A stretch of DNA of 32,000 bases from the NCBI RefSeq assembly GCF_051307035.1, contig NZ_CP195537.1:1-32000 (forward strand). The letters run 5' to 3'. Below are positions 2,052-22,772 of this stretch, in pieces (the first letter of the stretch is position 1; every line of letters starts with the position of its first letter). Source of the stretch: Psychrobacter sp. DM4. GTDB taxonomy: Bacteria > Pseudomonadota > Gammaproteobacteria > Pseudomonadales > Moraxellaceae. The position numbers were made by a program, and so were the translations under genes. The notes below the pieces were generated by a model. The model did no database searches. It was not told the DNA's origin and saw only the letters and a list, made by a program, of their open reading frames with translations.

Positions 2052-2140
2052 TATACTTATATACTTATATACTTATATACTTATATACTTATATACTTAT
2101 ATACTTATATACTTATATACTTATATACTTATATACTCAA
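2052..2140 (+). repeat. 8-bp-periodic tetramer-box array (10 x ACTT + 1 x ACTC, ATAT spacers); candidate par centromere/operator
   Basis: Direct reading shows ACTT at 2055, 2063, 2071 ... 2127 (10 boxes, exactly 8 bp apart) and then ACTC at 2135. Each unit also reads TATACT (-10-like). The array ends 25 bp before the parA ATG. Confidence 0.9.
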
Positions 2141-2806: not shown

Positions 2807-3016
2807 ATGAGTTTATCAGCAGGTCGTCCAAGTAAAAAATCTAAGGATGAATTGGCTTTGTCGGATGTGACCGACAGTCCCAAAAAAACGGTACGAGTGA
2901 ATTTTAACCTAGATGAAGATAAGCACATTGCGCTCAAACGATACGCGCTTGAAAGCCGGAAAACAGTTACTGAGCTGTTGACCGAAATGATTGAAGAAAA
3001 GCTGGTTGAGCGGTAA
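2807..3016 (+). CDS. Small ParG-like ribbon-helix-helix centromere-binding protein (69 aa)
   Basis: The ATG lies 3 nt after the parA stop, with GAGGAG inside the parA 3' end. It has a basic, disordered-looking N-terminus (GRPSKKSKDE) and a C-terminal beta-alpha-alpha pattern, RVNFNLDEDKHIALKRYALESRKTVTELLTEMIEE. Size and position match type Ib partners. Confidence 0.6.
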   Translation: MSLSAGRPSKKSKDELALSDVTDSPKKTVRVNFNLDEDKHIALKRYALESRKTVTELLTEMIEEKLVER

Positions 3017-3252: not shown

Positions 3253-6123
3253 ATGCTTGACGTTCATCCATCAAAGAAAAAAGCCATTGAGCACCACCGA
3301 GGCCCGCTATTGATCATTGCGGGCCCGGGATCTGGGAAAACTTATACCCTAGTTGAGCGCATCATGAACCTCATTCATGTACATAGTGCAAAACCAGAAC
3401 AGTTGCTTGTTGTTACTTTCACAGAAAAAGCGGCGCAAGAGCTGAAGACGCGTATTTCTAATCGCTTGTTAGAACTAGGGTCTTTGTTCAATGTGAACGA
3501 GATGTACTTGGGGACATTTCACTCGATATGTTTGCGCATTCTCGAAGAGTATCGCGATTTCACGCGACTTAAGCGCAGTTTTGTGCTTATGGATCAGTTC
3601 GATCAACAGTATTTTTTGTATCAAAGACTACGCGATTTTAAAGATATCGAGGGCATAGAACATATTCAAGGCGAGCACAAGATTCCTGCATGGGCAAAGT
3701 CTGAGAATCTGCTTGGTTGGTTAAATAAGGCGTCAGAAGAGGTTCTTGATATCGACAAACTGGTTGCTTCACCAGATGAAGCGATCTCTGCGCTTGGCGA
3801 GGCCTATAAGGTTTATCAAGAGCTTTTATTGAATGAGAACGCCTTAGATTTTTCTTGTATTCAACTTGAAACACTCGTGCTTCTGCAGCAGCATCCACAT
3901 ATCTTGGAAGAATTGACTACTAAAATTACTTATTTGATGGTTGATGAATATCAAGATACTAATACCATTCAAGAGTATTTACTGCAGCTATTAATGGGTG
4001 CCAAGCGTAATTTGTGTGTAGTGGGAGATGACGACCAAGCTCTTTATCGTTTCCGCGGTGCAAGTGTGCGAAACATCCTAGAGTTTCCAGCTCAGTTTGC
4101 TCCAAATGAGTGTGAACAAGTAAAGTTATCGATTAATTATCGTTCGCACCCTGATATTGTTAACTTTTACGACTCATATATGGGAGATAAACCTTGGCTA
4201 CGCGAAGGTGTTAATTATCGTTATGCTAAAACAATACGCCCGCGCGATGGTGAGTTTAAAGCAGGGCCTACCGTCGTCAGTGCGATTACACCAGAAGGTG
4301 ATGATTGGCATGAAGACGTCTACCAAATTCTCATGCATCTAAAACAAAACGGTAAACTAACGGACTGGAATCAAGCAGCATTTTTATTTCGTTCCGTGAA
4401 ATCAGATAAGGTTCGAGCACTTGCTCAGTCTTTAGAAGAGAAAGGCATTCCGGTTTATTCTCCGCGTGCGAATCTATTTTTCGAGCGAGAAGAAATCTGT
4501 TACATGTTAGGTGCGTTTAATTTGGTTTTCCCTATGGTGATGGCCGAGCGTAAGAAAAAAATAGCTGATGGACGTAAGCTCCCTATATGGGATTATTATA
4601 CCAATCATTGCTTAGCACCGTTTATAGCCAAGTTAAAAGAACCAGAACAAGCAGATTTGCTCAGATGGTGCCAGCAAAAAGCGAAAGCGCACATAGGTCT
4701 AACCAAGAATGCTGATTCAGCTTTTCTCGGCCTGTTTTATGAGTTATTGCAGTTTCCTTTATTCTCAAACTACCTTGAACAACACAGCGGCAACGAACGC
4801 GCTCAGCGTAACCTTGCTCAGCTAAGTCGAATGCTTGGTAAGTTTGAATATTTGCACCGAGTCAGTGTTCTGAACCCCAAATACTTACTGTCTAACCTAA
4901 CGTCCTTATTTGATAATTTTCTAAAATTTTTATTTGAAGGGGGGATAGATGAATACGAGGATATGTCCGAATATGCACCATCAGGATGCGTGTCCTTCTT
5001 AACCATTCACCAGTCTAAAGGATTAGAATTTCCGATTGTTTTTGTCGGTTCACTTGAAGGTGTTCCGCGTAAACAATACACCGACCTTGATGAGATTATT
5101 GAACATCAATACATGGCCAAACCTCCTTTTGAGCCACTAGATGACACTAAGTATTTCGATTTTTGGCGTTTGTTCTATACCGCTTTTTCGAGGCCGCAAA
5201 ACTTATTGGTCCTAACAGGGCAAGAAAAATCAGGACATGGCAAAACACCTTCCAGACATTTCACGGATTACACCACACAGCTACCTTATTGGCGCGATGT
5301 AAAGCACAAGCTTGCTGAAATAGAGTTCGAGCAAGTAAAAGATGTGAATATCAAGCATGAGTATGCCTTTACCTCTCACATTACCTTATTCGAGACCTGC
5401 GCAGAGCAATATCGATTATTCAAAGAGCTCGAGTTCCAACCTGTAAAGGCAAGCCCTATGCTATTTGGTACTTTAATTCATGAGACCCTAGAGGATGTCC
5501 ATAAGTCGGCAATTCGTGGTGAAACGGATATACTCACGAAAGATAATATTAAAAGTTGGTTACTGAGTAACTACGAGAACTTAGCTAATCGTGAACGTAT
5601 GTATTTAGGGGAGTCGACATTAGGTGCGGCACTAAAACATGTAATGCGTTATGTCGAGCGAAAGGGTAGTGATTGGTCCGACATACAAGAAACTGAATTT
5701 GATATCTCGTTAGTCAAAGAACGTTATGTGTTAACCGGTAGCGTAGATTTGATTAAAGGGGAAGGAGACAGCGTTGAGATCGTTGATTTCAAATCAGAGC
5801 GTAAGCCAAATATGGAAAAAGACAGAGAGCGCATCTTGCATCACCAGCGTCAGTTAGAAATTTATGCGTATTTGGTAGAAGCAAATAGCGATTACAAAGT
5901 TAGTAAGATGCATTTGTATTTTACTGGCGAAACAACCGGCTTACCGACCATTAGTTTTAATAAAAACATCTCAGCAATTGACCATACTATTCATCAATTT
6001 GATAGTATTGTCGACAAAATTGAAAGCAAAGATTTCTCACTGAAAGCTCGACCAGATAAAACCTGTGTAGATTGCAGCGCACGCGCCTATTGCGACCGAA
6101 AAAATTGGACATTTTGTGCTTAG
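3253..6123 (+). CDS. UvrD/PcrA-family SF1 helicase fused to a C-terminal 4-Cys PD-(D/E)XK (Cas4/AddB-like) nuclease
   Basis: Helicase motifs: AGPGSGKT (3319-3342), VVTFTEKAAQEL, GTFHS, DEYQDTN, VGDDDQALYRFRGA, INYRS, TIHQSKGLEFPIVFV, YTAFSRPQNLLVL. C-terminal nuclease motifs: ETCAEQY, GTLIHETLE, VDLIKGEGDSVEIVDFKS, QLEIYAYL, CVDCSARAYC. Confidence 0.85.
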   Translation: MLDVHPSKKKAIEHHRGPLLIIAGPGSGKTYTLVERIMNLIHVHSAKPEQLLVVTFTEKAAQELKTRISNRLLELGSLFNVNEMYLGTFHSICLRILEEYRDFTRLKRSFVLMDQFDQQYFLYQRLRDFKDIEGIEHIQGEHKIPAWAKSENLLGWLNKASEEVLDIDKLVASPDEAISALGEAYKVYQELLLNENALDFSCIQLETLVLLQQHPHILEELTTKITYLMVDEYQDTNTIQEYLLQLLMGAKRNLCVVGDDDQALYRFRGASVRNILEFPAQFAPNECEQVKLSINYRSHPDIVNFYDSYMGDKPWLREGVNYRYAKTIRPRDGEFKAGPTVVSAITPEGDDWHEDVYQILMHLKQNGKLTDWNQAAFLFRSVKSDKVRALAQSLEEKGIPVYSPRANLFFEREEICYMLGAFNLVFPMVMAERKKKIADGRKLPIWDYYTNHCLAPFIAKLKEPEQADLLRWCQQKAKAHIGLTKNADSAFLGLFYELLQFPLFSNYLEQHSGNERAQRNLAQLSRMLGKFEYLHRVSVLNPKYLLSNLTSLFDNFLKFLFEGGIDEYEDMSEYAPSGCVSFLTIHQSKGLEFPIVFVGSLEGVPRKQYTDLDEIIEHQYMAKPPFEPLDDTKYFDFWRLFYTAFSRPQNLLVLTGQEKSGHGKTPSRHFTDYTTQLPYWRDVKHKLAEIEFEQVKDVNIKHEYAFTSHITLFETCAEQYRLFKELEFQPVKASPMLFGTLIHETLEDVHKSAIRGETDILTKDNIKSWLLSNYENLANRERMYLGESTLGAALKHVMRYVERKGSDWSDIQETEFDISLVKERYVLTGSVDLIKGEGDSVEIVDFKSERKPNMEKDRERILHHQRQLEIYAYLVEANSDYKVSKMHLYFTGETTGLPTISFNKNISAIDHTIHQFDSIVDKIESKDFSLKARPDKTCVDCSARAYCDRKNWTFCA

Positions 6124-6160
6124 TTTTAGCTAAGTACTTCGAATATTAAGAGAATAAATC

Positions 6161-7981
6161 ATGTCAAACGACCAGATCAATGTAGAACACTACAAATTTG
6201 AGCCCATCAAAGGCTACCCGATGCTGAACTGGCAAGGCAAACGCCCTTTCCGTTCAACACAATACTTCCCCGCTCAACTCAAAGAAGTCTATGGTCAAGA
6301 GGATGATTCAGGCTGGATTAATAAGATTTTCTGGGGTGATAATCTTCAGGTCATGAGTCATTTGCTAAAAGAGTTCCGAGGTAAGGTGGATTTAATTTAT
6401 ATCGACCCACCTTTTGATTCAAAAGCGGACTATAAAAAGGTGATAAAACTCAAGGGTAAAAGTATAACAAACGATGCGAATAGTTTTGAGGAAAAGCAAT
6501 ATACCGATATTTGGTCTAATGATGATTATCTTCAATTTATGTATGAAAGATTAGTTGTTGCTAAAGAGTTATTAGCTGAAGATGGAAAAATAATTGTTCA
6601 TATAGACTATCGAAAGTCCTCACATATAAAATGCATTATGGATGAAGTTTTTGGTTTCGATAGATTTAGAAATGAAATTATTTGGCATTATTCAGGCTGG
6701 CTTAAAGCCAGTACATCTCAATTCGCGAGAAAACATGATAACTTATTGTTCTATGTGAAGAATGATACAGCAAAGATTAATATTACTTATGAGTCTTGGG
6801 TGGATGCTTATTCATTAAAAGAGCTTAAGAAAATGCAGTTTGGTAAAGACACTAAAGGTGATTTCTTTATTGATAATAATCAAAAAATATATTTAATGGA
6901 TATTCTTTCTGGATACTTAGCAAACCGTAAGCAAGCAGTACATGAAGATGATATAGGACAGTTTGTATATGCTGATGGTCGTAATACTAATAAGAGATAT
7001 TTAAAGGATGTGTTGCTTGGAGGTAAAGCTGTAGATGATGTATGGGATATCAAAGCATTAACAACCTCAGCAAATGAGCGAGTAGGTTACCCTACACAAA
7101 AACCTGAAGAGTTAGTTGAGCGTATCATTGAGGCTTGTAGTAATAGTGGTGGATTAGTTTTTGACTTCTTTATGGGCTCAGGAACAACTCAAGCAGTCGC
7201 TCATAAGTTAGGGCGCAAGTTTATAGGTGCTGATATAAACTTAGGAGCAGTTCAAACAACAACTAAAAGGTTATCAAAAGAAAAGGCTAACTTTGAAGTT
7301 TTCAATGTCAATAATTATGAAATTTTCCGCAATCCAGTTGAAGCAAAAGAGTTACTCATAGAAGCTCTAGAAATTCAAAAGCTCGATGCAACTTCAGTCT
7401 ACGACGGTGAAAAAGACGGCTATAAAGTCAAAATAATGCCGGTTAACCGCATTGCGACTAAAGAAGACTTGAATGAGTTAATCGCAAACTTCCCTTACAA
7501 GCAATTTGAGTCGCGTAAAGAAGCCAACCCAAACCAATCAGTAGAAGAAATTATGCTGGTATGTATGGGACATGAGCCAAGTTTAGGGGCAACACTAGAG
7601 AATGAATCAGGCTATAAACTTAAGGTTCAAGTGGTTGACATTCTTCGCGACAAATCTGACCTAACGTTCAAGTACGATTCAGAAGCTGCTATAAAGATCG
7701 AAGGCAATAAATTAGTCGTTGAAGCCTTCTATCCACGTAACTTACTTCAAAAGCTTAGCCAACAAAAAGATGACGTGGAAGAGTGGCGTGAGATGGTCGA
7801 GTCCATAATGATTGACTGGAACTTCGATGGCGCGGTTATGGAACCTGTAGTAATAGATATCCCACCTAAAGATGAATTTGTCGTTGGTGAATATGAGATC
7901 CCAGAAGGTGCTAGCAACATCAAGGTGAAGATCACTGATTTACTTTCGGAATCTTACGAGGAGGTGATCGTTCATGGCTAA
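6161..7981 (+). CDS. Type III Mod-like (beta-class) DNA methyltransferase, probably N6-adenine
   Basis: Motif IV LIYIDPPFDS (aa ~82) precedes motif I VFDFFMGSGTTQAVAHKLGRKFIGADIN (aa ~336), which is the beta-class order. A ~250-aa region separates them (candidate target-recognition domain) and a ~240-aa C-terminal extension follows. The stop overlaps the res ATG. Confidence 0.85.
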   Translation: MSNDQINVEHYKFEPIKGYPMLNWQGKRPFRSTQYFPAQLKEVYGQEDDSGWINKIFWGDNLQVMSHLLKEFRGKVDLIYIDPPFDSKADYKKVIKLKGKSITNDANSFEEKQYTDIWSNDDYLQFMYERLVVAKELLAEDGKIIVHIDYRKSSHIKCIMDEVFGFDRFRNEIIWHYSGWLKASTSQFARKHDNLLFYVKNDTAKINITYESWVDAYSLKELKKMQFGKDTKGDFFIDNNQKIYLMDILSGYLANRKQAVHEDDIGQFVYADGRNTNKRYLKDVLLGGKAVDDVWDIKALTTSANERVGYPTQKPEELVERIIEACSNSGGLVFDFFMGSGTTQAVAHKLGRKFIGADINLGAVQTTTKRLSKEKANFEVFNVNNYEIFRNPVEAKELLIEALEIQKLDATSVYDGEKDGYKVKIMPVNRIATKEDLNELIANFPYKQFESRKEANPNQSVEEIMLVCMGHEPSLGATLENESGYKLKVQVVDILRDKSDLTFKYDSEAAIKIEGNKLVVEAFYPRNLLQKLSQQKDDVEEWREMVESIMIDWNFDGAVMEPVVIDIPPKDEFVVGEYEIPEGASNIKVKITDLLSESYEEVIVHG

Positions 7982-10658
7982 GAACGCCCAAGACAACTTC
8001 GAGTTAAATAACTCGTTTTACGTCCACTTGCATGAATTCTATAAAATTCATCGAGGCACCATACGTAAAAATTACACTCGTCTAAGTAAAGCCTTCTTAG
8101 ACTTCAACGAGCCATCGCGCCCCGGTAGCTTTCTACGTGTGCCTCAGTTCGAAGCTCTAGAAATCTATGTATTCCTAAAGGAGTTCTTAGATAACAAACC
8201 CGTCTTCCAACTATTTGAAGATTGGTATACCAACCAAGGTAAATTTGCAGAGCGAGTATCCGGCATAAGCACTATAGATGGCCAGATCATGCAAGGGGAT
8301 ATGTTCTGGGAGATGTCTGAAACAGACTATAAAGGCATTTTCAAAAAGATGAAAGCCAGTAACGGCGGCCGCCTTTACCCGAACTATATTTTTGCGCTGA
8401 CCATGGGTACTGGAAAAACTATCCTCATGGCCACCTGTATCTTCTATGATTTCTTAGCGGGTAATAAAAAAGGCAAAGATGAGCGTTTTATTCAAAACGC
8501 GCTAATTTTCGCACCGGACAAAACCGTTCTTCAGTCATTACGCGAAATTGAATCCTTCGATCATTCTAAAGTCGTGCCGCCGGAGTACATGCCAATTGTC
8601 GCGGAATTCAAATTTCACTATCTCGAAGATGCTGGTGTCTCGCTCAACACCATGGACGGCTCTAAGTTCAATATCATCGTATCGAATAGCCAGAAAATCA
8701 TCTTACGCCGCGATAGCAAAGGTAAGTCGACGGCCGATAAGCTCTTCAGCTCTGGCAAAGACATGTACCAAGGCCTTGGTGGTGTAGAAGATGAAGCGAT
8801 GGCTATGCTTGGCCTAGATGATGATTCTATCGCTGCCGCGCCTCAAGATGAAGCAGATCTTGTCACTAACCAACGTTTCGAGAAAATCAAGCGGCTTCCT
8901 CAGTTAGGTATCTTTGTTGACGAAGCCCACCACGCATTTGGTGCAAAGCTTGCCAAAGACATGGGTATAAAAGCCGATAATACGGCAAACTCATTGCGCA
9001 AAACAATTGATGAGCTCGCGATAAATTTGAAACAAGCCGGAACTCGAGTGGTGGGGTGTTATAACTACACTGGTACGCCTTATGTAGGTAAAGATGTGTT
9101 GCCAGAAGTGGTTTATGCCTATGGGTTACGCAAGGCGATTGATAACAATTACTTGAAGCAAGTTAAGCTTAATGGCTATAGCAATACGCGCCACGAGGAG
9201 TTTTTAGAGATAGCCATCAATGATTTCTTAGCAAAGGCCGATGAGATTGGACGCCCTGAGAATATACTGCCGAAGATGGCAATTTTTGGTACGACTGTCG
9301 AAGAATTGACGACTGAAATTCGTCCGGCTGTAGAAAAGATACTAGCGAAGCACGGCATATCTTCTGACCGTATATTGATTAACGTCGGTGACGCAAAACA
9401 CACCACTGATGATGATATCCGCGAATTCAACCGTCTAGATAGTCCGAACTCAGAAAAACAGTTCATCTTACTGGTGAATAAAGGCCGAGAAGGTTGGAAC
9501 TGTCGTTCTCTGTTTTCAGTCGCGCTTTATCGTGAACCAAAGTCTAAGGTGTTTATACTTCAAGCGACTATGCGTTGTTTACGTGCCATAGGTGACAGAC
9601 AGCATGTTGGCCATATTTATCTTACTAAAGAAAACATGGCACTTTTGGATAAGGAGCTTCAAGCGAACTTCCGTATCTCAACAGATGAACTTAAAGAACC
9701 TGATCCGAATAAGGAAACGGTACATGTTAGAGTTGAGCAGCCAAGTATCAAGGTGCCAATCAAACGCGTTCGTCGTCAATTCAAGTTAATTGGAAAAGAA
9801 GATTTAAAAGATGGGTATAAGTTAGGGCTTGATAGAGTTGATCTTGATGACTATCGACTTATCCATGAAACCCAGCAAGGGCTATTAATGCCTGATGATA
9901 TTGGAACTGTGAAAAATCGTGCTCGACAAGATCTTTCTTTCCTAAAAGAGCAGCGTACTTTTACCAAACTGTCATTAGTTGCTGATATCGCTCGATATAT
10001 TAATAAACCTTGTTTAGAAATTGAAAAAATTGTCGCAGCTACAGAAGAAGGCTTTGACGGTATCTTAGAGTTGGTGAACAAGTTCAATGAAGTACTGTAC
10101 GACCAAGTGATTCCGCGGCTTTTTAAAGCGATGTACGATATAGAGTCGGAAAGTGTTACTGAAGAGTTTGATGTTGAGTTAGTGAAAGAGCCACCTATAG
10201 ACCCTGGGTATTATCCAGTAACCGTCTCCAAAGATAAGATTATTAGAAAATCATCTTTAGAAATTGCAGAATTAACAGGGAAAAGCTTCCACCTAGACAA
10301 CTACTGTTTCGATTCAAATCCAGAACGTCAGTTCTTTTGGGATATGTTACACGACAAACAAGTTGATAAGATTTGGTTTACCGGAATGTTAACGCATGGA
10401 CAAAGTGACTTTGTGATTCATTACGTAGACACAGAAACGCAGCGCGTACGTAGTTATTACCCTGACTTCCTGATTAAAAAACAAGATGGTTCTTATGTGA
10501 TGGTAGAAGTCAAAGGCGAGCACATGATTGACTCTCAAAACGTAAGAGATAAGAAAGATGCAGCAGAACTTATGGGCGTAGCGTCAGGTATTGGCTACGA
10601 AATAGTTACGGGTAAATCCGCAGACTCAGGAAGCTATGATCGAGCCTTTTTAAACTAA
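7974..10658 (+). CDS. Type III restriction Res-like subunit (SF2 DEAH helicase + C-terminal PD-(D/E)XK nuclease)
   Basis: Motifs: LTMGTGKT (8401-8420), FVDEAHHAFG, YTGTPY, and C-terminal YYPDFLIKKQDGSYVMVEVKG (10454-10519). The ATG overlaps the mod stop (ATGGCTAA) and follows GAGGAGGTG. Confidence 0.85.
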   Translation: MAKNAQDNFELNNSFYVHLHEFYKIHRGTIRKNYTRLSKAFLDFNEPSRPGSFLRVPQFEALEIYVFLKEFLDNKPVFQLFEDWYTNQGKFAERVSGISTIDGQIMQGDMFWEMSETDYKGIFKKMKASNGGRLYPNYIFALTMGTGKTILMATCIFYDFLAGNKKGKDERFIQNALIFAPDKTVLQSLREIESFDHSKVVPPEYMPIVAEFKFHYLEDAGVSLNTMDGSKFNIIVSNSQKIILRRDSKGKSTADKLFSSGKDMYQGLGGVEDEAMAMLGLDDDSIAAAPQDEADLVTNQRFEKIKRLPQLGIFVDEAHHAFGAKLAKDMGIKADNTANSLRKTIDELAINLKQAGTRVVGCYNYTGTPYVGKDVLPEVVYAYGLRKAIDNNYLKQVKLNGYSNTRHEEFLEIAINDFLAKADEIGRPENILPKMAIFGTTVEELTTEIRPAVEKILAKHGISSDRILINVGDAKHTTDDDIREFNRLDSPNSEKQFILLVNKGREGWNCRSLFSVALYREPKSKVFILQATMRCLRAIGDRQHVGHIYLTKENMALLDKELQANFRISTDELKEPDPNKETVHVRVEQPSIKVPIKRVRRQFKLIGKEDLKDGYKLGLDRVDLDDYRLIHETQQGLLMPDDIGTVKNRARQDLSFLKEQRTFTKLSLVADIARYINKPCLEIEKIVAATEEGFDGILELVNKFNEVLYDQVIPRLFKAMYDIESESVTEEFDVELVKEPPIDPGYYPVTVSKDKIIRKSSLEIAELTGKSFHLDNYCFDSNPERQFFWDMLHDKQVDKIWFTGMLTHGQSDFVIHYVDTETQRVRSYYPDFLIKKQDGSYVMVEVKGEHMIDSQNVRDKKDAAELMGVASGIGYEIVTGKSADSGSYDRAFLN

Positions 10659-14919: not shown

Positions 14920-15513
14920 ATGACTGTTCGTATTTATGTGAGAGCCAGCACTAAGGATCAAGACGCTACCAGAGCATTGGCTGATTTGGTGGCTTTCAGT
15001 ACAAGTTATGATGATAACCATGTTGAGTACGTCGAGCATTTCAGTGGTACAAAGCTCGATAGACCATTATTAGCCAAGCTGCTAAAGGACGCTGAGCAAG
15101 GCGATATTCTACTGGTTGAAAGCGTGGATAGATTAAGCCGATTATCTCAAGATGATTTTGCAATTCTAAAGCAGCGTATCAAAGACAAAGGCTTGCGATT
15201 GGTGGTGGCTGATCTACCAACGACGCATACAGTTAATAATGGCATGACAGGTGAGATCCTAACAGTGATTAACCATATGCTGATCGACTTATTAGCAACG
15301 ATGGCAAAGCTTGATAACGACAAGCGTAGAGAGCGTATCAAGCAGGGATTGGCTAACAGTGGCTATAAGCCCTCCGGTAAGAAGCCTAATACAACGAAAC
15401 ACAATCGTATTAGAGAATTAGACAGTCAAGGCAATATGACAAAAGAGGAAATCGCTAAGGCAGTTGGTGTTGGCGTAGCTACTGTTTACCGGGTGTTAAA
15501 GCCAGGCTCATAG
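14920..15513 (+). CDS. Serine recombinase (resolvase/invertase family)
   Basis: RIYVRASTKDQD carries the catalytic Ser codon at 14947-14949. Also present are GDILLVESVDRLSRL and the C-terminal HTH TKEEIAKAVGVGVATVYRVLK. SD is AGAGGTGGG. Confidence 0.85.
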   Translation: MTVRIYVRASTKDQDATRALADLVAFSTSYDDNHVEYVEHFSGTKLDRPLLAKLLKDAEQGDILLVESVDRLSRLSQDDFAILKQRIKDKGLRLVVADLPTTHTVNNGMTGEILTVINHMLIDLLATMAKLDNDKRRERIKQGLANSGYKPSGKKPNTTKHNRIRELDSQGNMTKEEIAKAVGVGVATVYRVLKPGS

Positions 15514-15731
15514 CTGAGGTATTTTATTTTATTTTTGTTCATAAACAGCTGATATATAAGGCTTTACACGCGAGGCAAGAAGGCTTTATTTGCAGAAATA
15601 GGTACTCTATTACTACGTAGCTGTGTTAAGAACGGTGTATTTTCATCATTCAATTTCGTTCAATTATGCCCACTTAAAACGCCCTTCGATCTTTATCTAA
15701 AGACATCACAGCGTCATATAAAAATCGATTT

Positions 15732-15769
15732 AATGCAATGAGGCTTCATTATAATCATTATATTGCATT
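15732..15769 (+). promoter_or_regulatory. Candidate promoter/operator of the fic gene
   Basis: A perfect TATAAT (15750-15755) is bracketed by the 8-bp inverted repeat AATGCAAT (15732-15739) / ATTGCATT (15762-15769). Two ATAATCGCTT direct repeats follow. No convincing -35. Confidence 0.3.
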
Positions 15770-15819
15770 CATAATCGCTTTTCTGCAAAATGGCTTATCT
15801 ATAATCGCTTGAGCCACTC

Positions 15820-17403
15820 ATGATGAACACCCCTACCTCAGACCCTATTGGCGCAGCATGGCTTATCCGTCATGCAAGCATCGAGCTGGTTTCGCCTTTA
15901 TATGTCAGCAGTAGTATCGGTGGGCGCAGACAAACCTATAAAGACGGTGACGTCATTCATAACGCTTATCAGGAAACCGCGCGTCCACTGGACACAATCA
16001 TTGCGCACTTACAATTTCACATGCGTCATGAAGTACTGAGTTTAGAGTTACTGACTCGTCTGTTTGAGCAGATAGGGGCTGATGATGTACAAGCATGGGT
16101 AAACGCTGAGCCCACAGGCAGCTATGCCCGTAGAATGGCTTTCTTGTATGAATGGCTCATGGGTCAGCAGTTAGCAGTACCGAGTAATTTAGGCGGTAAC
16201 TATGTGGACGCTTTAGATGCTAAGAAGCAGGTTACTTCAAGCCCTGCGCATGTCATCAAGAATGCTCGTTGGCGTATCAATGACAATCTAGCAGGAACCC
16301 GTCATTTCTGTCCGATACTGGTGAAAACAGAGGCCTTTACGCAAGCAGCTGCACTCGATATTGCCACAATGGTTGACAAACTTAACGATGAATTTGGGCA
16401 AGACTTACTGATGCGCGCCTCCGTATGGATGACCCTACGGGAAAGCAAAGCGAGCTTTACTATAGAAGGTGAGGGAAAAGAGTTAAAACGTATTGAACGT
16501 TTTGCCGATGTAATGGCACGGCGTACCGGCAAGGGCGATATTCCGCTTGATCCTGAGTCGCTAGCAGAGTTGCAACAAGAGATACTTGGTAGCAAAACGG
16601 TCATCCAGCAGTATGGCGTCCGTCAATCTCCAGTTTTTGTGTCGCATACTCAGGTCAATGGCTTTAAAGAGATTGTGCACTATATTGCGCCACCTGCTGA
16701 TGACATTGCTGAAAAGCTCAAAGGGTTACAGGCATTTATGGAAAAGACCGAGGGACAATCGGCACTGATACGTAGTGCGGTTGCTTCCTTTGCTTTTGTG
16801 TATATTCATCCGCTAGCGGATGGCAATGGCCGAGTACATCGCTTCCTAATTAACGATGTACTCAGACGCGACCAGATCATTCATGAGCCGATTATCTTAC
16901 CTATATCGCAAGCCATCGCTGAGCATCCCTCAGACCGTCATGCCTATGATAAAATTTTAGACCGTGTATCCGTGCCACTTATGGAGCAAATCCGTGATCA
17001 TTACAGCTTTGATAAACAAGCGATTACTTACCCTGATGGTATTCGCTCAAACTTAAATTTTGGAAATACTCACCTAATTCAACCTGCATGGCGCTTTATG
17101 GATCTAACGCCTCACGTTCAGTACTTATCAGGACTCATTGCTCATGTTATTGAAAAAGAGATGCATAACGAGTCACAGTACCTAAGAAAGCATGACCATG
17201 CACGACTGGCGATAAAAGAGATTGTTGAGATGCCCAACAGCTATGCCGATAGAATCATTCGCAGTATGCTGCAAAATAAGGGTGCTAAAAGTAATAAGTT
17301 ACTTAAGGATTATCCATTTTTAACAAATGATGAGGTTTGGGACGATATTTTCTCTGTCGTTGTAGAGACCTTTAAAGATGAGACAGATGAATTGAATAGG
17401 TAG
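15820..17403 (+). CDS. Fic/DOC-family protein (class II, internal inhibitory helix)
   Basis: The Fic motif HPLADGNGRVHR lies at 16807-16842 (aa 330-341). The alpha-inh-type motif SFTIEG lies at 16453-16470 (aa 212-217), N-terminal of the core. Confidence 0.85.
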   Translation: MMNTPTSDPIGAAWLIRHASIELVSPLYVSSSIGGRRQTYKDGDVIHNAYQETARPLDTIIAHLQFHMRHEVLSLELLTRLFEQIGADDVQAWVNAEPTGSYARRMAFLYEWLMGQQLAVPSNLGGNYVDALDAKKQVTSSPAHVIKNARWRINDNLAGTRHFCPILVKTEAFTQAAALDIATMVDKLNDEFGQDLLMRASVWMTLRESKASFTIEGEGKELKRIERFADVMARRTGKGDIPLDPESLAELQQEILGSKTVIQQYGVRQSPVFVSHTQVNGFKEIVHYIAPPADDIAEKLKGLQAFMEKTEGQSALIRSAVASFAFVYIHPLADGNGRVHRFLINDVLRRDQIIHEPIILPISQAIAEHPSDRHAYDKILDRVSVPLMEQIRDHYSFDKQAITYPDGIRSNLNFGNTHLIQPAWRFMDLTPHVQYLSGLIAHVIEKEMHNESQYLRKHDHARLAIKEIVEMPNSYADRIIRSMLQNKGAKSNKLLKDYPFLTNDEVWDDIFSVVVETFKDETDELNR

Positions 17404-17623
17404 AACAGACCCTGCTATATGCAAGAAAATCTGCCTTGATAATCAAGCTTAAGCTAGTATCAGTATCATCGTTGCGATAATGATTCGTTTATAAAAGATT
17501 CGGCTAAAATACTGTAACTTGAAACGTAATCAATATTTTTCTTACTTAAACAGAATATATTAGAGGAACTTTGATAACAGACCATTTTTATTTGACAAGG
17601 TTATTACAGATCCTCAAAATAAT

Positions 17624-17818
17624 TTTGAGTATTTGAGTATTTGAGTATTTGAGTATTTGAGTATTTGAGTATTTGAGTATTTGAGTATTTGAGTATTTGA
17701 GTATTTGAGTATTTGAGTATTTGAGTATTTGAGTATTTGAGTATTTGAGTATTTGAGTATTTGAGTATTTGAGTATTTGAGTATTTGAGTATTTGAGTAT
17801 TTGAGTATTTGAGTATTT
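17624..17818 (-). repeat. Perfect 24-copy 8-bp tandem array (minus-strand reading ACTCAAAT); candidate second centromere-like site
   Basis: GAGT occurs at 17627 and then every 8 bp to 17811 (24 boxes) with no mismatch seen. On the minus strand these are ACTC boxes with AAAT spacers. Confidence 0.95.
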
Positions 17819-17824
17819 ATTTAG

Positions 17825-18415
17825 CTATACAGCTATCAAATGACGCGAGCACTTAGCTGTAGCTTGTATTTCAGAATAACTACGCCCAGATTTCAGAAGG
17901 CTAGCGATAATCTTACGCTTCTCGGTATCTTTCCTACGTCCTGAATATTTACTTTCTACCTTAGTACGAGAAATACCTTACATCTGACGGTTACGTCGAT
18001 CTTCATAGTCCTTTCTAGCAATAGCAGCGAGCATATCAAGCATCATCGAATTAATGGACTGTAATACGCTGCTCATAAATTCAGTGCTGCTCTCAGATTG
18101 AGGCGTCATATAAGAGGTCGGTAGCTCTTCTGATACTACCGCCAGCTTCTTTTCTAATAGCATTCTTTTGAGAGTATCCCAATCAGCTTGGTTTAAACGT
18201 GCTAAGCGGTCAATCTGCTCAACCAAATTATATCGCCTTCATGGGCATCATTTATCAGTTACATTAACTGTGGACGTATTAAAGTTGCGTCTGACTCGTT
18301 TTCAACATAGAAGGCGGCAATTTTGTGACCATGATCAGCAGCAAGCTATATGAGCTCACTTTTGGCACGCTTGGCATCTTGATCTTTGATTGGCGCTCTA
18401 TGCTCTGATAAACAT
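17825..18415 (-). pseudogene. Decayed serine resolvase gene
   Basis: The reverse-strand reading gives, in order:
- MFIRA, then a frameshift.
- APIKDQDAKRAKSELI, then TAG.
- LAADHGHKIAAFYVENESDATLIRPQLM, then TAA.
- LINDAHEGDII, then a 1-nt frameshift in a T-run.
- LVEQIDRLARL...YEDRRNRQM, then TAA (17978-17980).
- GISRTKVESKYSGRR...SYSEIQATAKCSRHLIAV, then the stop at 17825-17827.
This is colinear with the 14920 resolvase at roughly 30% identity by eye. Confidence 0.8.
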
Positions 18416-18428
18416 AAACACCTAAAAT

Positions 18429-18475
18429 AGTCTGTTATAAGTAGTTCCATTATTGCAGTCTATTATAAGTAGACT
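18429..18475. promoter_or_regulatory. Direct 16-bp repeats upstream of the resolvase pseudogene (candidate relic res/operator)
   Basis: AGTCTGTTATAAGTAG (18429-18444) and AGTCTATTATAAGTAG (18457-18472) lie 28 bp apart. The second extends to the near-palindrome AGTCTATTATAAGTAGACT. Confidence 0.3.
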
Positions 18476-18790
18476 GTTAATTGATTAAGAGACCTGTTTT
18501 GATAGTGCCCCTGGGGTATACCCTACGATAACAGGAAAGCCATCGCGGATGACAAAACCTGTTTAGCTTTTAAACAAAACGGGTTTGTCGATAGTATGTA
18601 AGATAAGTTCGAAAAGTAACTGGAGTGTGAGACTATTCATACTGGGTCTGAATTAAAGTTTTATTGTGATTAATTTCTGCTCAATGTTATTCATTTGTCG
18701 CCACGATGAGTGATGGCGGCTTGTGATTTAGTTAGGAAAAATAATCTTGAGTAATAAGATACGTTTGTGGCATTTATAGCAGAGCTTGTT

Positions 18791-19153
18791 CTAGGCTTCT
18801 TTACTTACATTTTCCTGCAAGTTCTTTTTTAGTAAATGATCGAATATAAATGGGCCAAAAGGTAAGAGTGAGCCGAGTACGCCCGCAGGTATTGCCCAAA
18901 GAGGCATTTTCATTTTGATAGCTGAGCCTATAAGTATTATGATATAGGTAATAAACAACATACCGTGTGCCATACCGATGTATTTCACACCTTCTGGAAT
19001 GTCCATCATATATTTTAGTGGCATGGCGATGAAGAGCAATAATAAGAAAGAGGTGCCTTCTAGATAGCCTATAAGGGTAAGACTTTTTAACGCTGTCTCT
19101 TGTTTTTTTCTAAGGCTGTGAATTTTTTCAATAGTTGGCTGAGTCTGTGACAC
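18791..19153 (-). CDS. DUF3817-like small integral membrane protein
   Basis: IGYLEGTSFLLLLFIAMPLKY followed by GMAHGMLFITY is the pattern I associate with DUF3817, and there are 3-4 hydrophobic helices. GTG start at 19151-19153 lies 7 nt after AAGGA. Confidence 0.65.
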   Translation of the reverse strand: MSQTQPTIEKIHSLRKKQETALKSLTLIGYLEGTSFLLLLFIAMPLKYMMDIPEGVKYIGMAHGMLFITYIIILIGSAIKMKMPLWAIPAGVLGSLLPFGPFIFDHLLKKNLQENVSKEA

Positions 19154-22147: not shown

Positions 22148-22185
22148 CTCATTAAGTACGGTCAGGCTCATTAAGTACGGTCAGG
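22148..22185. repeat. 19-bp perfect tandem duplication at the 3' end of ccmG
   Basis: CTCATTAAGTACGGTCAGG occurs at 22148-22166 and again at 22167-22185. Confidence 0.95.
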
Positions 22186-22772
22186 CACGGCTTAACACGC
22201 TGTTGCCAATTGGCTTCATTAATCTCACCAACAATATGCTGACGAATGATGCCATCTCCATCCACAACAAAGGTTTCGGGCGCACCAGTTATGCCTAAGT
22301 CTAGAGCAAACTGACCTAATGAATCCTGAATAGACATAGAAAATGGATCACCGCCTCGGTTTAAGTAACTGAGCGCATTACCAATCTCATCCTTATAATT
22401 CACACCAACGATATCAACGCCACGCTCTTCTAATTGCATTAAAAACGGGTGCTCAATAACGCAAGTTGGGCACCACGAGCCCCAAACATTAATTAAAAAC
22501 GGCTTATCCGGCAAATTATCATTGGTGATAGTACGGGTAGTATCTGCTAATAAAGGCAGCTCAAAGGTAGGAACTGGGCGCTCAAGAGCGGTATTGGTCA
22601 CAATATTTGTTGGTTTACCTAAGCGCATATACAATATCACTACTAATCCAAAAAAGAGGATAAGCGGAATTAAGAACCATAGCTTCGTCTGCTTTTTTTT
22701 CATTGTCTTTGGGTTACGCTGCTTACTGTTTTGGCTATCTTTTTGCTCAGGAGTATTATTCGACATAGTCAT
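22152..22772 (-). CDS. ccmG: Thiol:disulfide oxidoreductase CcmG/DsbE
   Basis: Contains VWGSWCPTC (thioredoxin CxxC) and GVTGAPETFVVD-type GAPETF, with an N-terminal membrane anchor. It starts directly after the ccmF stop (TAAATG). Confidence 0.85.
   Translation of the reverse strand: MTMSNNTPEQKDSQNSKQRNPKTMKKKQTKLWFLIPLILFFGLVVILYMRLGKPTNIVTNTALERPVPTFELPLLADTTRTITNDNLPDKPFLINVWGSWCPTCVIEHPFLMQLEERGVDIVGVNYKDEIGNALSYLNRGGDPFSMSIQDSLGQFALDLGITGAPETFVVDGDGIIRQHIVGEINEANWQQRVKPCLTVLNEPDRT

Follow-up and report, generated by a model that had tools for sequence, protein, structure and literature searches.

What does a perfect 24-copy array of partition-type boxes do when it lies far away from the partition genes? 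This question is raised by the window, as we call the whole stretch of 32,000 nucleotides analyzed here, in which two arrays of 8-bp repeats were found, each with a promoter-like site before it. Array 1 precedes parA. Array 2 runs on the opposite strand, starts (17624) 14.6 kb after the end of parG (3016), and has no gene after it. The par locus and the two arrays comprise the following features.

2017 to 2045, + strand: putative parA promoter (TTGCTA, 17 nt, TATATT), read directly from the sequence.
2052 to 2139, + strand: array 1, ten ACTT+ATAT units and one ACTC box, the presumed cognate operator/centromere.
2165 to 2803, + strand: parA, encoding a small Walker-type (type Ib, ParF-like) partition ATPase of 212 aa (Pfam AAA_31/CbiA/ParA family).
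2807 to 3016, + strand: parG, encoding a 69-aa ribbon-helix-helix centromere-binding protein with the ribbon KTVRVNFN.
17624 to 17818, - strand: array 2, a putative centromere-like array that would bind ParG as an accessory site; relatives have identical arrays directly upstream of parA.

The relatives of parA are annotated as 'ParA family partition ATPase'. The window ParG scores 22.4 bits against the Pfam ParG family PF09274 (cutoff 21.4), aligns with the TP228 ParG structure (PDB 1p94, E=0.009) and is 96% identical to proteins named 'plasmid partition protein ParG' in RefSeq. Because a Walker-type ParA is paired here with a Pfam-positive, 1p94-aligning and RefSeq-named ParG, the window represents, by homology, a Psychrobacter plasmid with a partition locus of the ParF/ParG type (type Ib, ribbon-helix-helix). 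The best match of the region is plasmid pPspP11G5a, with 95.8% identity across 2 kb. The cargo of the window includes a UvrD/PD-(D/E)XK helicase-nuclease, a DNA methylase, a DprA-like gene, a heavy-metal ATPase, and lnt, lspA and ccm genes.

Array 1 is a perfect repeat of TATACTTA (10.8 copies by Tandem Repeats Finder, TRF), whose final ACTC box lies at 2135-2138. It lies 26 nt upstream of parA, and the putative parA promoter is located directly 5' of it, so that promoter and array follow each other in the same order as at array 2. Comparable promoters are present in the class-B loci and in pP62BP1 (PMC3346939). The unit of array 1 recurs in four plasmids (12.8-34 copies) that encode a ParG with an identity of at least 94%; together with the window, the ACTT+ATAT group comprises five plasmids with 10.8-34 copies, and the ribbon KTVRVNFN is kept in it.

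The sequence-only reading had described array 2 as 24 mismatch-free 8-bp units that read ACTC+AAAT on the minus strand, share their tetramer with the last box of array 1 and match the canonical ParG box, in an array that is inverted, 14.6 kb away from the par genes and abutting a decayed resolvase gene. This description held throughout. TRF reports 24.4 units of TTTGAGTA on the + strand with a period of 8, 100% matches, 0 indels and a score of 390, and a phased-box scan of the window found 24 GAGT boxes at exact 8-bp spacing (17627-17814); read on the minus strand, these are 24 ACTC boxes with the spacer AAAT in all 24 units. The shared tetramer is the ACTC at 2135-2138, inversion and distance follow from the coordinates, and the adjoining resolvase gene carries in-frame stops, a frameshift and a shortened C-terminus. 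The ACTC box, the 4-bp AT-rich spacer and the 8-bp register are those of the canonical ParG site (PMC3130281, PMC3413123). Runs of at least three phased boxes occurred 0 times in 200 mononucleotide shuffles of the window, and the scan of the whole window revealed no phased ACTC/GAGT or ACTY box clusters beyond arrays 1 and 2.

Two other identities of the repeat were rejected. An iteron-type origin has iterons of 17-22 bp next to a rep gene, together with an AT-rich region and a DnaA box. The unit is 8 bp long with no rep gene nearby, which speaks against iterons or a replication origin; the iterons of related plasmids are 20 bp (PMC3346939, PMC6579772). A protein-coding repeat is contradicted by a TAG stop before array 2 and by a stop in every unit of the + strand. 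All three frames of the minus strand are open, and their product would be (YSNTQILK)n; in K5 the repeats have been reported as the 3' terminus of Pcryo_2479 (PMC3346939).

The rules that a ParG site follows are known from TP228. There, the core site is the 5'-ACTC-3' box (PMC3130281), and 4-bp AT-rich spacers invariably part the boxes, giving an 8-bp register (PMC3130281, PMC3413123). Both parH with its 12 boxes and the OF operator with its 8 work as proficient centromeres, each box takes up one ParG dimer, efficient centromere activity needs at least eight boxes, a changed box orientation is tolerated, and the affinity of ParG increases with box number (PMC3130281). Array 2 has the ACTC core, the 4-bp AT-rich spacers and, with 24, more than eight boxes, and the window itself encodes a ribbon-helix-helix ParG and a ParF-like Walker ATPase. 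Judged by its boxes, array 2 satisfies the TP228 rules more cleanly than array 1 with its ACTT boxes. A position upstream of parF/parA, over the promoter/operator, is found for array 1 and not for array 2.

The eight-residue ribbon of ParG sets the choice of tetramer, the spacer is read indirectly, and homologues with other ribbons bind other tetramers at unchanged spacing (PMC3413123). The ribbon KTVRVNFN is identical in the window ParG and in the ParGs of pP62BP1, pA53P4, L071 and K5. The parA-proximal arrays of the first three consist of ACTCAAAT; at the corresponding site of K5, ACTC/GAGT boxes in direct and inverted orientation are mixed in the manner of TP228, with 4-bp spacers. Since the ribbon is identical and dictates the box (PMC3413123), the window ParG is expected to read ACTC boxes, and we consider it probable that it binds array 2, taken as a claim of its own. 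Because the same ribbon also goes with ACTT+ATAT arrays, C or T at the fourth position of the box appears to be tolerated. The ribbon table contains no ribbon difference between ACTT-type and ACTC-type ParGs; a search for a residue that parts the two types of plasmid yielded only H40/Y40 and ES versus DN/DS in helix A, and the candidate was dropped. The parA-proximal unit of the window is ACTT+ATAT and not ACTC+AAAT, an observation that runs against a ParG-loading role of array 2, and some shift in preference is conceivable.

We scanned species-representative genomes for exact patterns of three units, which returned at least 119 DNA stretches; all arrays were oriented as TTTGAGTA, their flanks were tabulated, and homologues of the window proteins were located around them. 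The main array class was ascertained by the exact unit, and the conservation of the unit is therefore partly circular. Psychrobacter provides more than half of the records among the matches listed. The unit was indeed found beside the par loci of relatives, a check that the sequence-only reading had proposed: an identical array precedes parA in at least 12 other Psychrobacter replicons. Among the matches listed, (TACTCAAA)n lies 15-24 nt upstream of the parA start in 12 of 79 Psychrobacter-type arrays. The ParAs linked to these parA-proximal TACTCAAA arrays are 88-92% identical to the window ParA, and the ParGs 77-86% identical to the window ParG. In array-bearing parA loci the promoter comes first and the array fills the 5' leader; pP62BP1 has a TTGATA-17-TACATT promoter, then 17 units, then the RBS. 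Because relatives carry identical parA-proximal arrays, the ribbon is shared and the TP228 rules are followed, array 2 is most likely a second array of a centromere-like kind that would load ParG. That it would be the stronger of the two sites is only an extrapolation from the effect of box number in TP228.

The layout in which array 1, parA and parG are followed at a distance by Res1, Fic and an inverted array 2 is common to the window, pPspP11G5a (TATACTTA x22.5 and TTTGAGTA x22.4) and the contigs L011, L038, L040 and L105, the last four having the ACTCAAAT unit in both arrays. It is common for one plasmid to have several ACTC-N4 arrays, four in pA53P4 and two each in pA17P4 and pPsychbacter006, as seen in the following list.

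pA17P4: at parA, ACTTATAT x17.8; elsewhere, a ACTCAAAT-type array x3.5 beside a recombinase gene.
pPsychbacter006: at parA, ACTTATAT x12.8; elsewhere, ACTCAAAT x4.4 and a 9-bp variant x13.6, beside a recombinase gene.
pA53P4: at parA, ACTCAAAT x9.4; elsewhere, ACTCAAAT x3.2 at Fic, ACTCATTT x22.4 and ACTCATAT x7.8.
pVan23-2: at parA, ACTTATAT x34; elsewhere, none.

The units seen in these loci are ACTC+AAAT, ACTC+AAAAT, ACTC+ATTT, ACTC+ATAT, ACTT+ATAT and a single GCTC+AAAT. An ACTC core that is kept while an AT-only spacer varies is the pattern expected of an element read by ParG, in which the box would be read directly and the spacer indirectly.

The position of array 2 was analyzed in terms of the genes and repeats around it, with the Fic gene on one side and the resolvase pseudogene on the other.

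14920 to 15513, + strand: Res1, an intact serine recombinase gene.
15820 to 17403, + strand: Fic-family gene; the Res1-Fic module spans 14920 to 17403.
17549 to 17589, no strand: IRR_RES-like element with the inverted repeats I2, I6 and I7, from sequence comparison.
17831 to 18415, - strand: serine resolvase pseudogene whose 3' end adjoins array 2, from tblastn against an intact homologue.
18421 to 18500, no strand: putative res / IRL_RES region 5' of the resolvase, containing repeats of the AACAGAC/GTCTGTT type (TRF, 14 bp x3.2 at 18428-18472).

Within its aligned part, the resolvase pseudogene has three in-frame stops; a stop is present at codon 6 (ATG TTT ATC AGA GCA TAG), a frameshift lies near 18220, and the C-terminus is about 13 residues shorter than in the intact homologue. 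In the 40 nt at 17549-17589, the sequence just upstream of the resolvase start, 18421-18480, recurs in inverted form (GGAACTTTGATAACAGACCATTTTT / GGAACTACTTATAACAGACTATTTT); together with 18421-18500, these 40 nt bracket the resolvase and array 2. The resolvase of pP62BP1 is bordered by the inverted repeats IRL_RES and IRR_RES (PMC3346939), to which the repeats of the window correspond on comparison of their sequences. In pP62BP1 the distal repeat comes directly after the resolvase stop codon; in the window, array 2 and about 45 nt separate the two. The intact resolvase ORF of the L060 class terminates exactly at the first array unit, and in some other alleles the resolvase ORF has no stop and reads on into the array.

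Among the matches listed, 38 of 79 arrays have a close homologue of the window Fic gene 219-253 nt upstream, 34 of 79 directly adjoin a resolvase 3' end, and 30 of 32 Res2-type junctions fall at 0-16 nt. In the same matches, the array is about five times commoner in the resolvase/Fic context than before parA and therefore behaves as part of a recombination module. An element specific to Fic was considered and rejected: the flank 'downstream of Fic' is the distal inverted repeat of the resolvase cassette, and class C loci consist of Res1, array and resolvase without Fic. We also rejected a res site of the serine resolvase, whose inverted binding subsites would lie 5' of the resolvase gene, as the res-like repeats are those at 18421-18500 and 17549-17589, and array 2 stands between them and has no sequence in common with them. 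The suggestion of the earlier reading that array 2 may be a relic of a par/res region is partly right, as array 2 is inside a resolvase cassette; the array travels with the resolvase/Fic module and not with par genes.

A different kind of relic has to be weighed here. A past recombination of a parA-proximal array with the resolvase cassette may have left a non-functional, slippage-homogenized VNTR that hitchhikes neutrally with the Res1-Fic-resolvase module, an explanation that we consider unlikely but worth serious attention. The flank classes on the left and on the right are shuffled as though the arrays were recombination joints, the resolvase next to the array is decayed in the window as well as in pPspP11G5a and K5 (PMC3346939), and the copy number ranges from 3.4 to 27.4; moreover, the array is found on replicons without a ParG match and is missing after the same Fic gene in pP32BP2 and pA11BP5. 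However, the unit is retained next to resolvase alleles and left flanks with a divergence of 10-25%, with the caveat that its conservation is partly circular, the scan having used the exact unit. The junction of resolvase stop and array recurs with intact resolvases (L060 class), variant arrays change the spacer and keep the ACTC core, most complete copies hold at least eight boxes, and the array is accompanied by an invariant -35-like box. These features speak against a neutral relic.

Slippage is sufficient to account for the perfect identity of the units: expansion and contraction by this process keep the array perfect and turn it into a VNTR. The sequence-only reading had predicted such hypervariability, and the comparison of relatives bore it out, with 3.4, 5.4, 11.4, 16.4 and 22.4 copies between mutually identical flanks, that is, in loci with equal 250-nt flank scores versus the window (92.0% left, 98.8% right). 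Array 1 is likewise variable (10.8 to 34 copies). Across loci, the unit of array 2 ranges from 3.2 to 27.4 copies, with a low end of about 3 in L113 and pA53P4. With about 3 copies, the arrays of these two loci have fewer boxes than function requires in TP228. The 24 copies of the window are plausible, since relatives with complete assemblies have 12-27.

The prediction of an assembly hotspot also came true, in that short-read assemblies break at the array. Many draft assemblies end within it, at about 77, 85 or 125 nt, which we interpret as k-mer-limited truncation. It might be argued from such contig ends that array 2, or its length, is itself an assembly artefact, which would affect copy number only; as many independent complete assemblies have 12-27 copies enclosed by unique flanks, we give this next to no credence. 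The perfect, hypervariable array may thus serve as a practical VNTR marker for strain typing and is a known breakpoint of short-read assemblies.

Between the distal inverted repeat and array 2, a further element was found.

17592 to 17620, + strand: sigma-70-like promoter (TTGACA, 17 nt, CAAAAT; 10/12 matches).

It ends 3 nt before array 2 and is directed into the array, antisense to the resolvase pseudogene. Among the matches listed, TTGACAAG is the only invariant block over 16 distinct left flanks, and the 17-18-nt spacer after it diverges across those 16 flank versions; an invariant TTGACAAG next to a diverging spacer indicates that the -35 box is under constraint. It is possible that a promoter gated by ParG, antisense or outward, exists at array 2. 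Taken further, array 2 could be a regulatory operator, at which bound ParG gates the TTGACA-17-CAAAAT promoter, for example antisense to the resolvase gene or res site, or ParG could act as an omega-like global regulator at several promoter-array units. The order of promoter and array is the same as at parA, TTGACAAG stays invariant even in the unrelated class D flank, TTGACA-17-CAAAAT is the best promoter-like match of the region, and there is a precedent in the omega protein of pSM19035, which binds six arrays of 7-10 contiguous 7-bp repeats that overlap promoters (PMC9499535). Nevertheless, we regard a mainly regulatory role as improbable: the -10 element is weak, the number of promoter-like matches in the region is not above the shuffled expectation, the ORF list has no ORF on the + strand downstream of the array 2 promoter, an Rfam search over 17000-19000 gave no match at E<=1, and the target resolvase is a pseudogene in the window.

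Complete plasmids were compared for the co-occurrence of array and ParG. Among the PLSDB plasmids with a close Fic homologue, K5, pPspP11G5a and pA53P4 carry both array and ParG, pP32BP2 has ParG and no array after the Fic gene, and pA11BP5 has neither. On the WY6 plasmid (12 copies), tblastn found neither ParA nor ParG, and p10FS3-1-2 of Acinetobacter (22 copies, with IS elements on either side) gave no ParG match. ParG is thus present on 4 of 6 plasmid records with a Fic-linked array, two of these four being the same K5 plasmid, and 2 of 6 gave no match to it; strict co-occurrence of array and ParG across complete plasmids was not found. The presence of the array on WY6 and p10FS3-1-2 without a ParG match means that it can persist without a partner in cis, at least transiently. 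The greater abundance of the array at resolvase/Fic, its presence without a ParG match and its occasional reduction to about 3 copies are observations that do not sit easily with a ParG-loading role.

The same plasmids raise the alternative of a centromere acting in trans, in which the cassette would serve par-less replicons through the ParFG of a co-resident plasmid, or would be an incompatibility determinant against plasmids with ACTCAAAT centromeres. Besides the arrays on WY6 and p10FS3-1-2, which gave no ParG match, an array of 27.4 copies is found in a record titled 'chromosome' (L041), several arrays lie on different contigs of one genome, for example in P. immobilis 1617 and Psychrobacter sp. 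Ps2, and the parA-proximal unit of the window is unlike that of array 2. We find this alternative very improbable as the main function, however, given that in the strains with pPspP11G5a, K5 and pA53P4 the only plasmid-borne ParG in PLSDB sits in cis, on the array-bearing plasmid, an observation that also favors a ParG-loading array 2. In TP228, moreover, supplying parFG in trans to the centromere proved difficult (PMC3130281), which suggests position effects and thereby counts against the ParG-loading reading of the remote array 2 as well.

Our model remains that array 2 is a landing site for ParG, and on balance we lean towards the complete form of this reading, in which it is a functional accessory centromere-like array and a ParG sink within a resolvase cassette. 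It would be of the parH/parS type known from ParF/ParG (type Ib, ribbon-helix-helix) systems. Most likely, the plasmid's own ParG (2807-3016) would coat array 2 cooperatively, with a dimer on each ACTC box, up to 24 of them in the 8-bp register, and the coated array would form a second partition-complex site able to engage ParA. At the same time, array 2 could act as a sink for ParG, which would autoregulate parAG through array 1. The array sits outside the par operon and inside the resolvase cassette, between the stop codon and the distal inverted repeat, and the cassette, usually linked to the Res1-Fic module, is shuffled among Psychrobacter replicons.

If array 2 binds ParG, each such plasmid would have at least two partition-complex sites, one of them with a far larger number of boxes, and more canonical ones, than the site at parA, and the architecture of the partition complex, the titration and autoregulation of ParG and par-mediated incompatibility among co-resident Psychrobacter plasmids would all be affected. 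A bolder idea, which we put forward as an unlikely one, is that res, resolvase, ACTC array and inverted repeat form a mobile stability cassette, in which the resolution of multimers goes together with a portable centromere, a generic landing pad for ParG with a ParG-gated promoter of its own. Were this the case, any replicon, par-less plasmids and chromosomal islands among them, could use or sabotage the ParFG of a co-resident plasmid, and ParG would regulate globally, like omega, from several dispersed arrays.

Arrays of this kind have been noticed before. Lasek et al. in 2012 put forward a run of seventeen adjacent copies of 5'-AATACTCA-3' as the parS of pP62BP1 (PMC3346939). In plasmid 1 of P. 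cryohalolentis K5 they came, 'to our surprise', upon twelve identical copies away from parA, where a disrupted resolvase ORF has its 3' end, and they noted a further TTTACTCA array (PMC3346939). A similar parS has been predicted in pP32BP2 (PMC6579772). The parS of pP62BP1 is itself only predicted (PMC3346939), which counts against the ParG-loading reading of array 2. K5 and the window are alike in the Fic gene upstream, the left flank and the resolvase remnant on the right, and by this comparison the K5 orphan array is the positional orthologue of array 2, which makes array 2 a new instance of a feature already noticed. The orphan-array pattern extends the 2012 observation and opens no new category; what is new here are the ribbon argument, the anatomy of the cassette, the conservation of the -35 box, the relative frequency of arrays as orphans and next to parA, and the quantification of the VNTR. 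ACTC-box arrays are embedded in resolvase cassettes, and the unit is, among the matches listed, commoner as an orphan than next to parA, a pattern that may interest plasmid biologists.

Like the parS of pP62BP1, array 2 consists of identical, adjacent 8-bp AATACTCA direct repeats, and both are putative ParG sites; in contrast, the pP62BP1 array lies between the parA -10 box and the RBS, and array 2, with its 24 copies, lies 14.6 kb from the par genes. With parH and OF of TP228 it shares the ACTC boxes, the 4-bp AT-rich spacers and the 8-bp register (PMC3130281, PMC3413123), a ribbon-helix-helix ParG with a related ribbon (KTVRVNFN in the window, KIKRVNVN in TP228), a ParF-like ATPase and an array that would double as operator and centromere. 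The boxes of TP228, however, are degenerate, 20 in total, of mixed orientation and all upstream of parF, whereas those of array 2 are 24 identical direct boxes, remote from par, within a resolvase cassette and hypervariable in number. The omega/parS system of pSM19035 is similar in its ribbon-helix-helix protein, its contiguous short repeats with one dimer per repeat, and its several arrays per plasmid, each beside a promoter (PMC9499535). It differs in protein family, in unit (7-bp WATCACW for omega) and in host phylum, and its regulated downstream genes are known, whereas none are evident at array 2. A Walker-type par locus with two centromere regions is also found in par2 of pB171. There, parC1 and parC2 flank parA-parB (PMC4270457). 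Unlike in pB171, the second array of the window is 14.6 kb off with cargo genes between, and the repeat units are unrelated; locus L090, with ACTCATTT x7.9 upstream of parA and ACTCAAAT x11 downstream of parG, has exactly the two-sided layout of pB171.

Length variation also affects the parA-proximal array (ACTT boxes with ATAT spacers, window 2052-2139). We observed 10.8 copies of its unit in the window and 22.5, 17.8, 12.8 and 34 copies in the plasmid loci L129, L132, L133 and L134, respectively, whose ParG proteins share 94-96% identity with the window ParG. Thus, this array is a VNTR too. For the ACTC array, many draft contigs stop inside the repeat, with about 77, 85 or 125 nt of it at their ends:

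Contigs ending in the array: L011, L015, L017, L024, L028, L034, L038, L040, L055, L061, L073, L074, L080

This pattern is consistent with assembler k-mer limits; therefore, the array lengths at those contig ends may not reflect the true genomic copy numbers.

In the right-flank class beginning tcgacccattttTATAGCTACAAC (e.g. L022, L025, L079 and L123), the resolvase alleles carry no stop codon ahead of the array, and because of this the ORF extends into it as a (YSNTQILK)n tail. All three frames of the array's minus strand are open. On the left, a consensus -35 box, TTGACAAG (window 17592-17620, + strand), is directed into the array. It is unchanged across 16 diverged left-flank versions and is kept even in the class D flank, which is otherwise unrelated. 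No gene lies downstream of this promoter-like site on the + strand.

The same cassette, pairing the array (27.4 copies) with the resolvase, is present in Psychrobacter sp. ER1 (L041, 3226-3441); the database entry describes this sequence as a complete chromosome. A tblastn search of this 8-kb locus returned no Fic match. The ER1 cassette may belong to an integrated plasmid or island.

Several arrays can share one replicon, as plasmid pA53P4 (L135) carries four ACTC-N4 arrays with three spacer types:

1394-1468, 16436-16461, 39296-39474 and 48101-48162: ACTC-N4 arrays
47427-47888: block of four 10-bp tandem arrays, adjoining the ACTCATAT array

Two further features were recorded in the window:

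3253-10658: block between parG and a DprA-like gene, made up of a UvrD-like helicase with a PD-(D/E)XK nuclease domain, an N6/N4 DNA methylase, plus an 894-aa protein
22148-22186: perfect 19-bp tandem duplication (CTCATTAAGTACGGTCAGG x2.1) where two ccm-region ORFs meet

The first, in which the 894-aa protein had no Pfam match, possibly represents an island of the defence or restriction type.

Outside Psychrobacter, among the matches listed, (TTTGAGTA)5-14 occurs at one conserved locus in Helicobacter pylori genomes (L026, L035, L037, L045, L070 and L117). Its flanks are unrelated; the H. pylori repeat is an independent VNTR sharing the 8-bp unit. The same unit also forms arrays in two metagenome-assembled genomes:

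L050 3800-3855: Halomonas MAG, directly upstream of a ParA gene, array preceded by inverted GAGT boxes
L053 2248-2350: Bacteriovoracia MAG, directly upstream of a ParA gene, array orientation relative to parA reversed

The ParA proteins behind these arrays share just 49-53% identity with the window ParA. Because the unit lies upstream of such divergent ParA genes, ACTC-N4 arrays appear to be in use far outside Psychrobacter.
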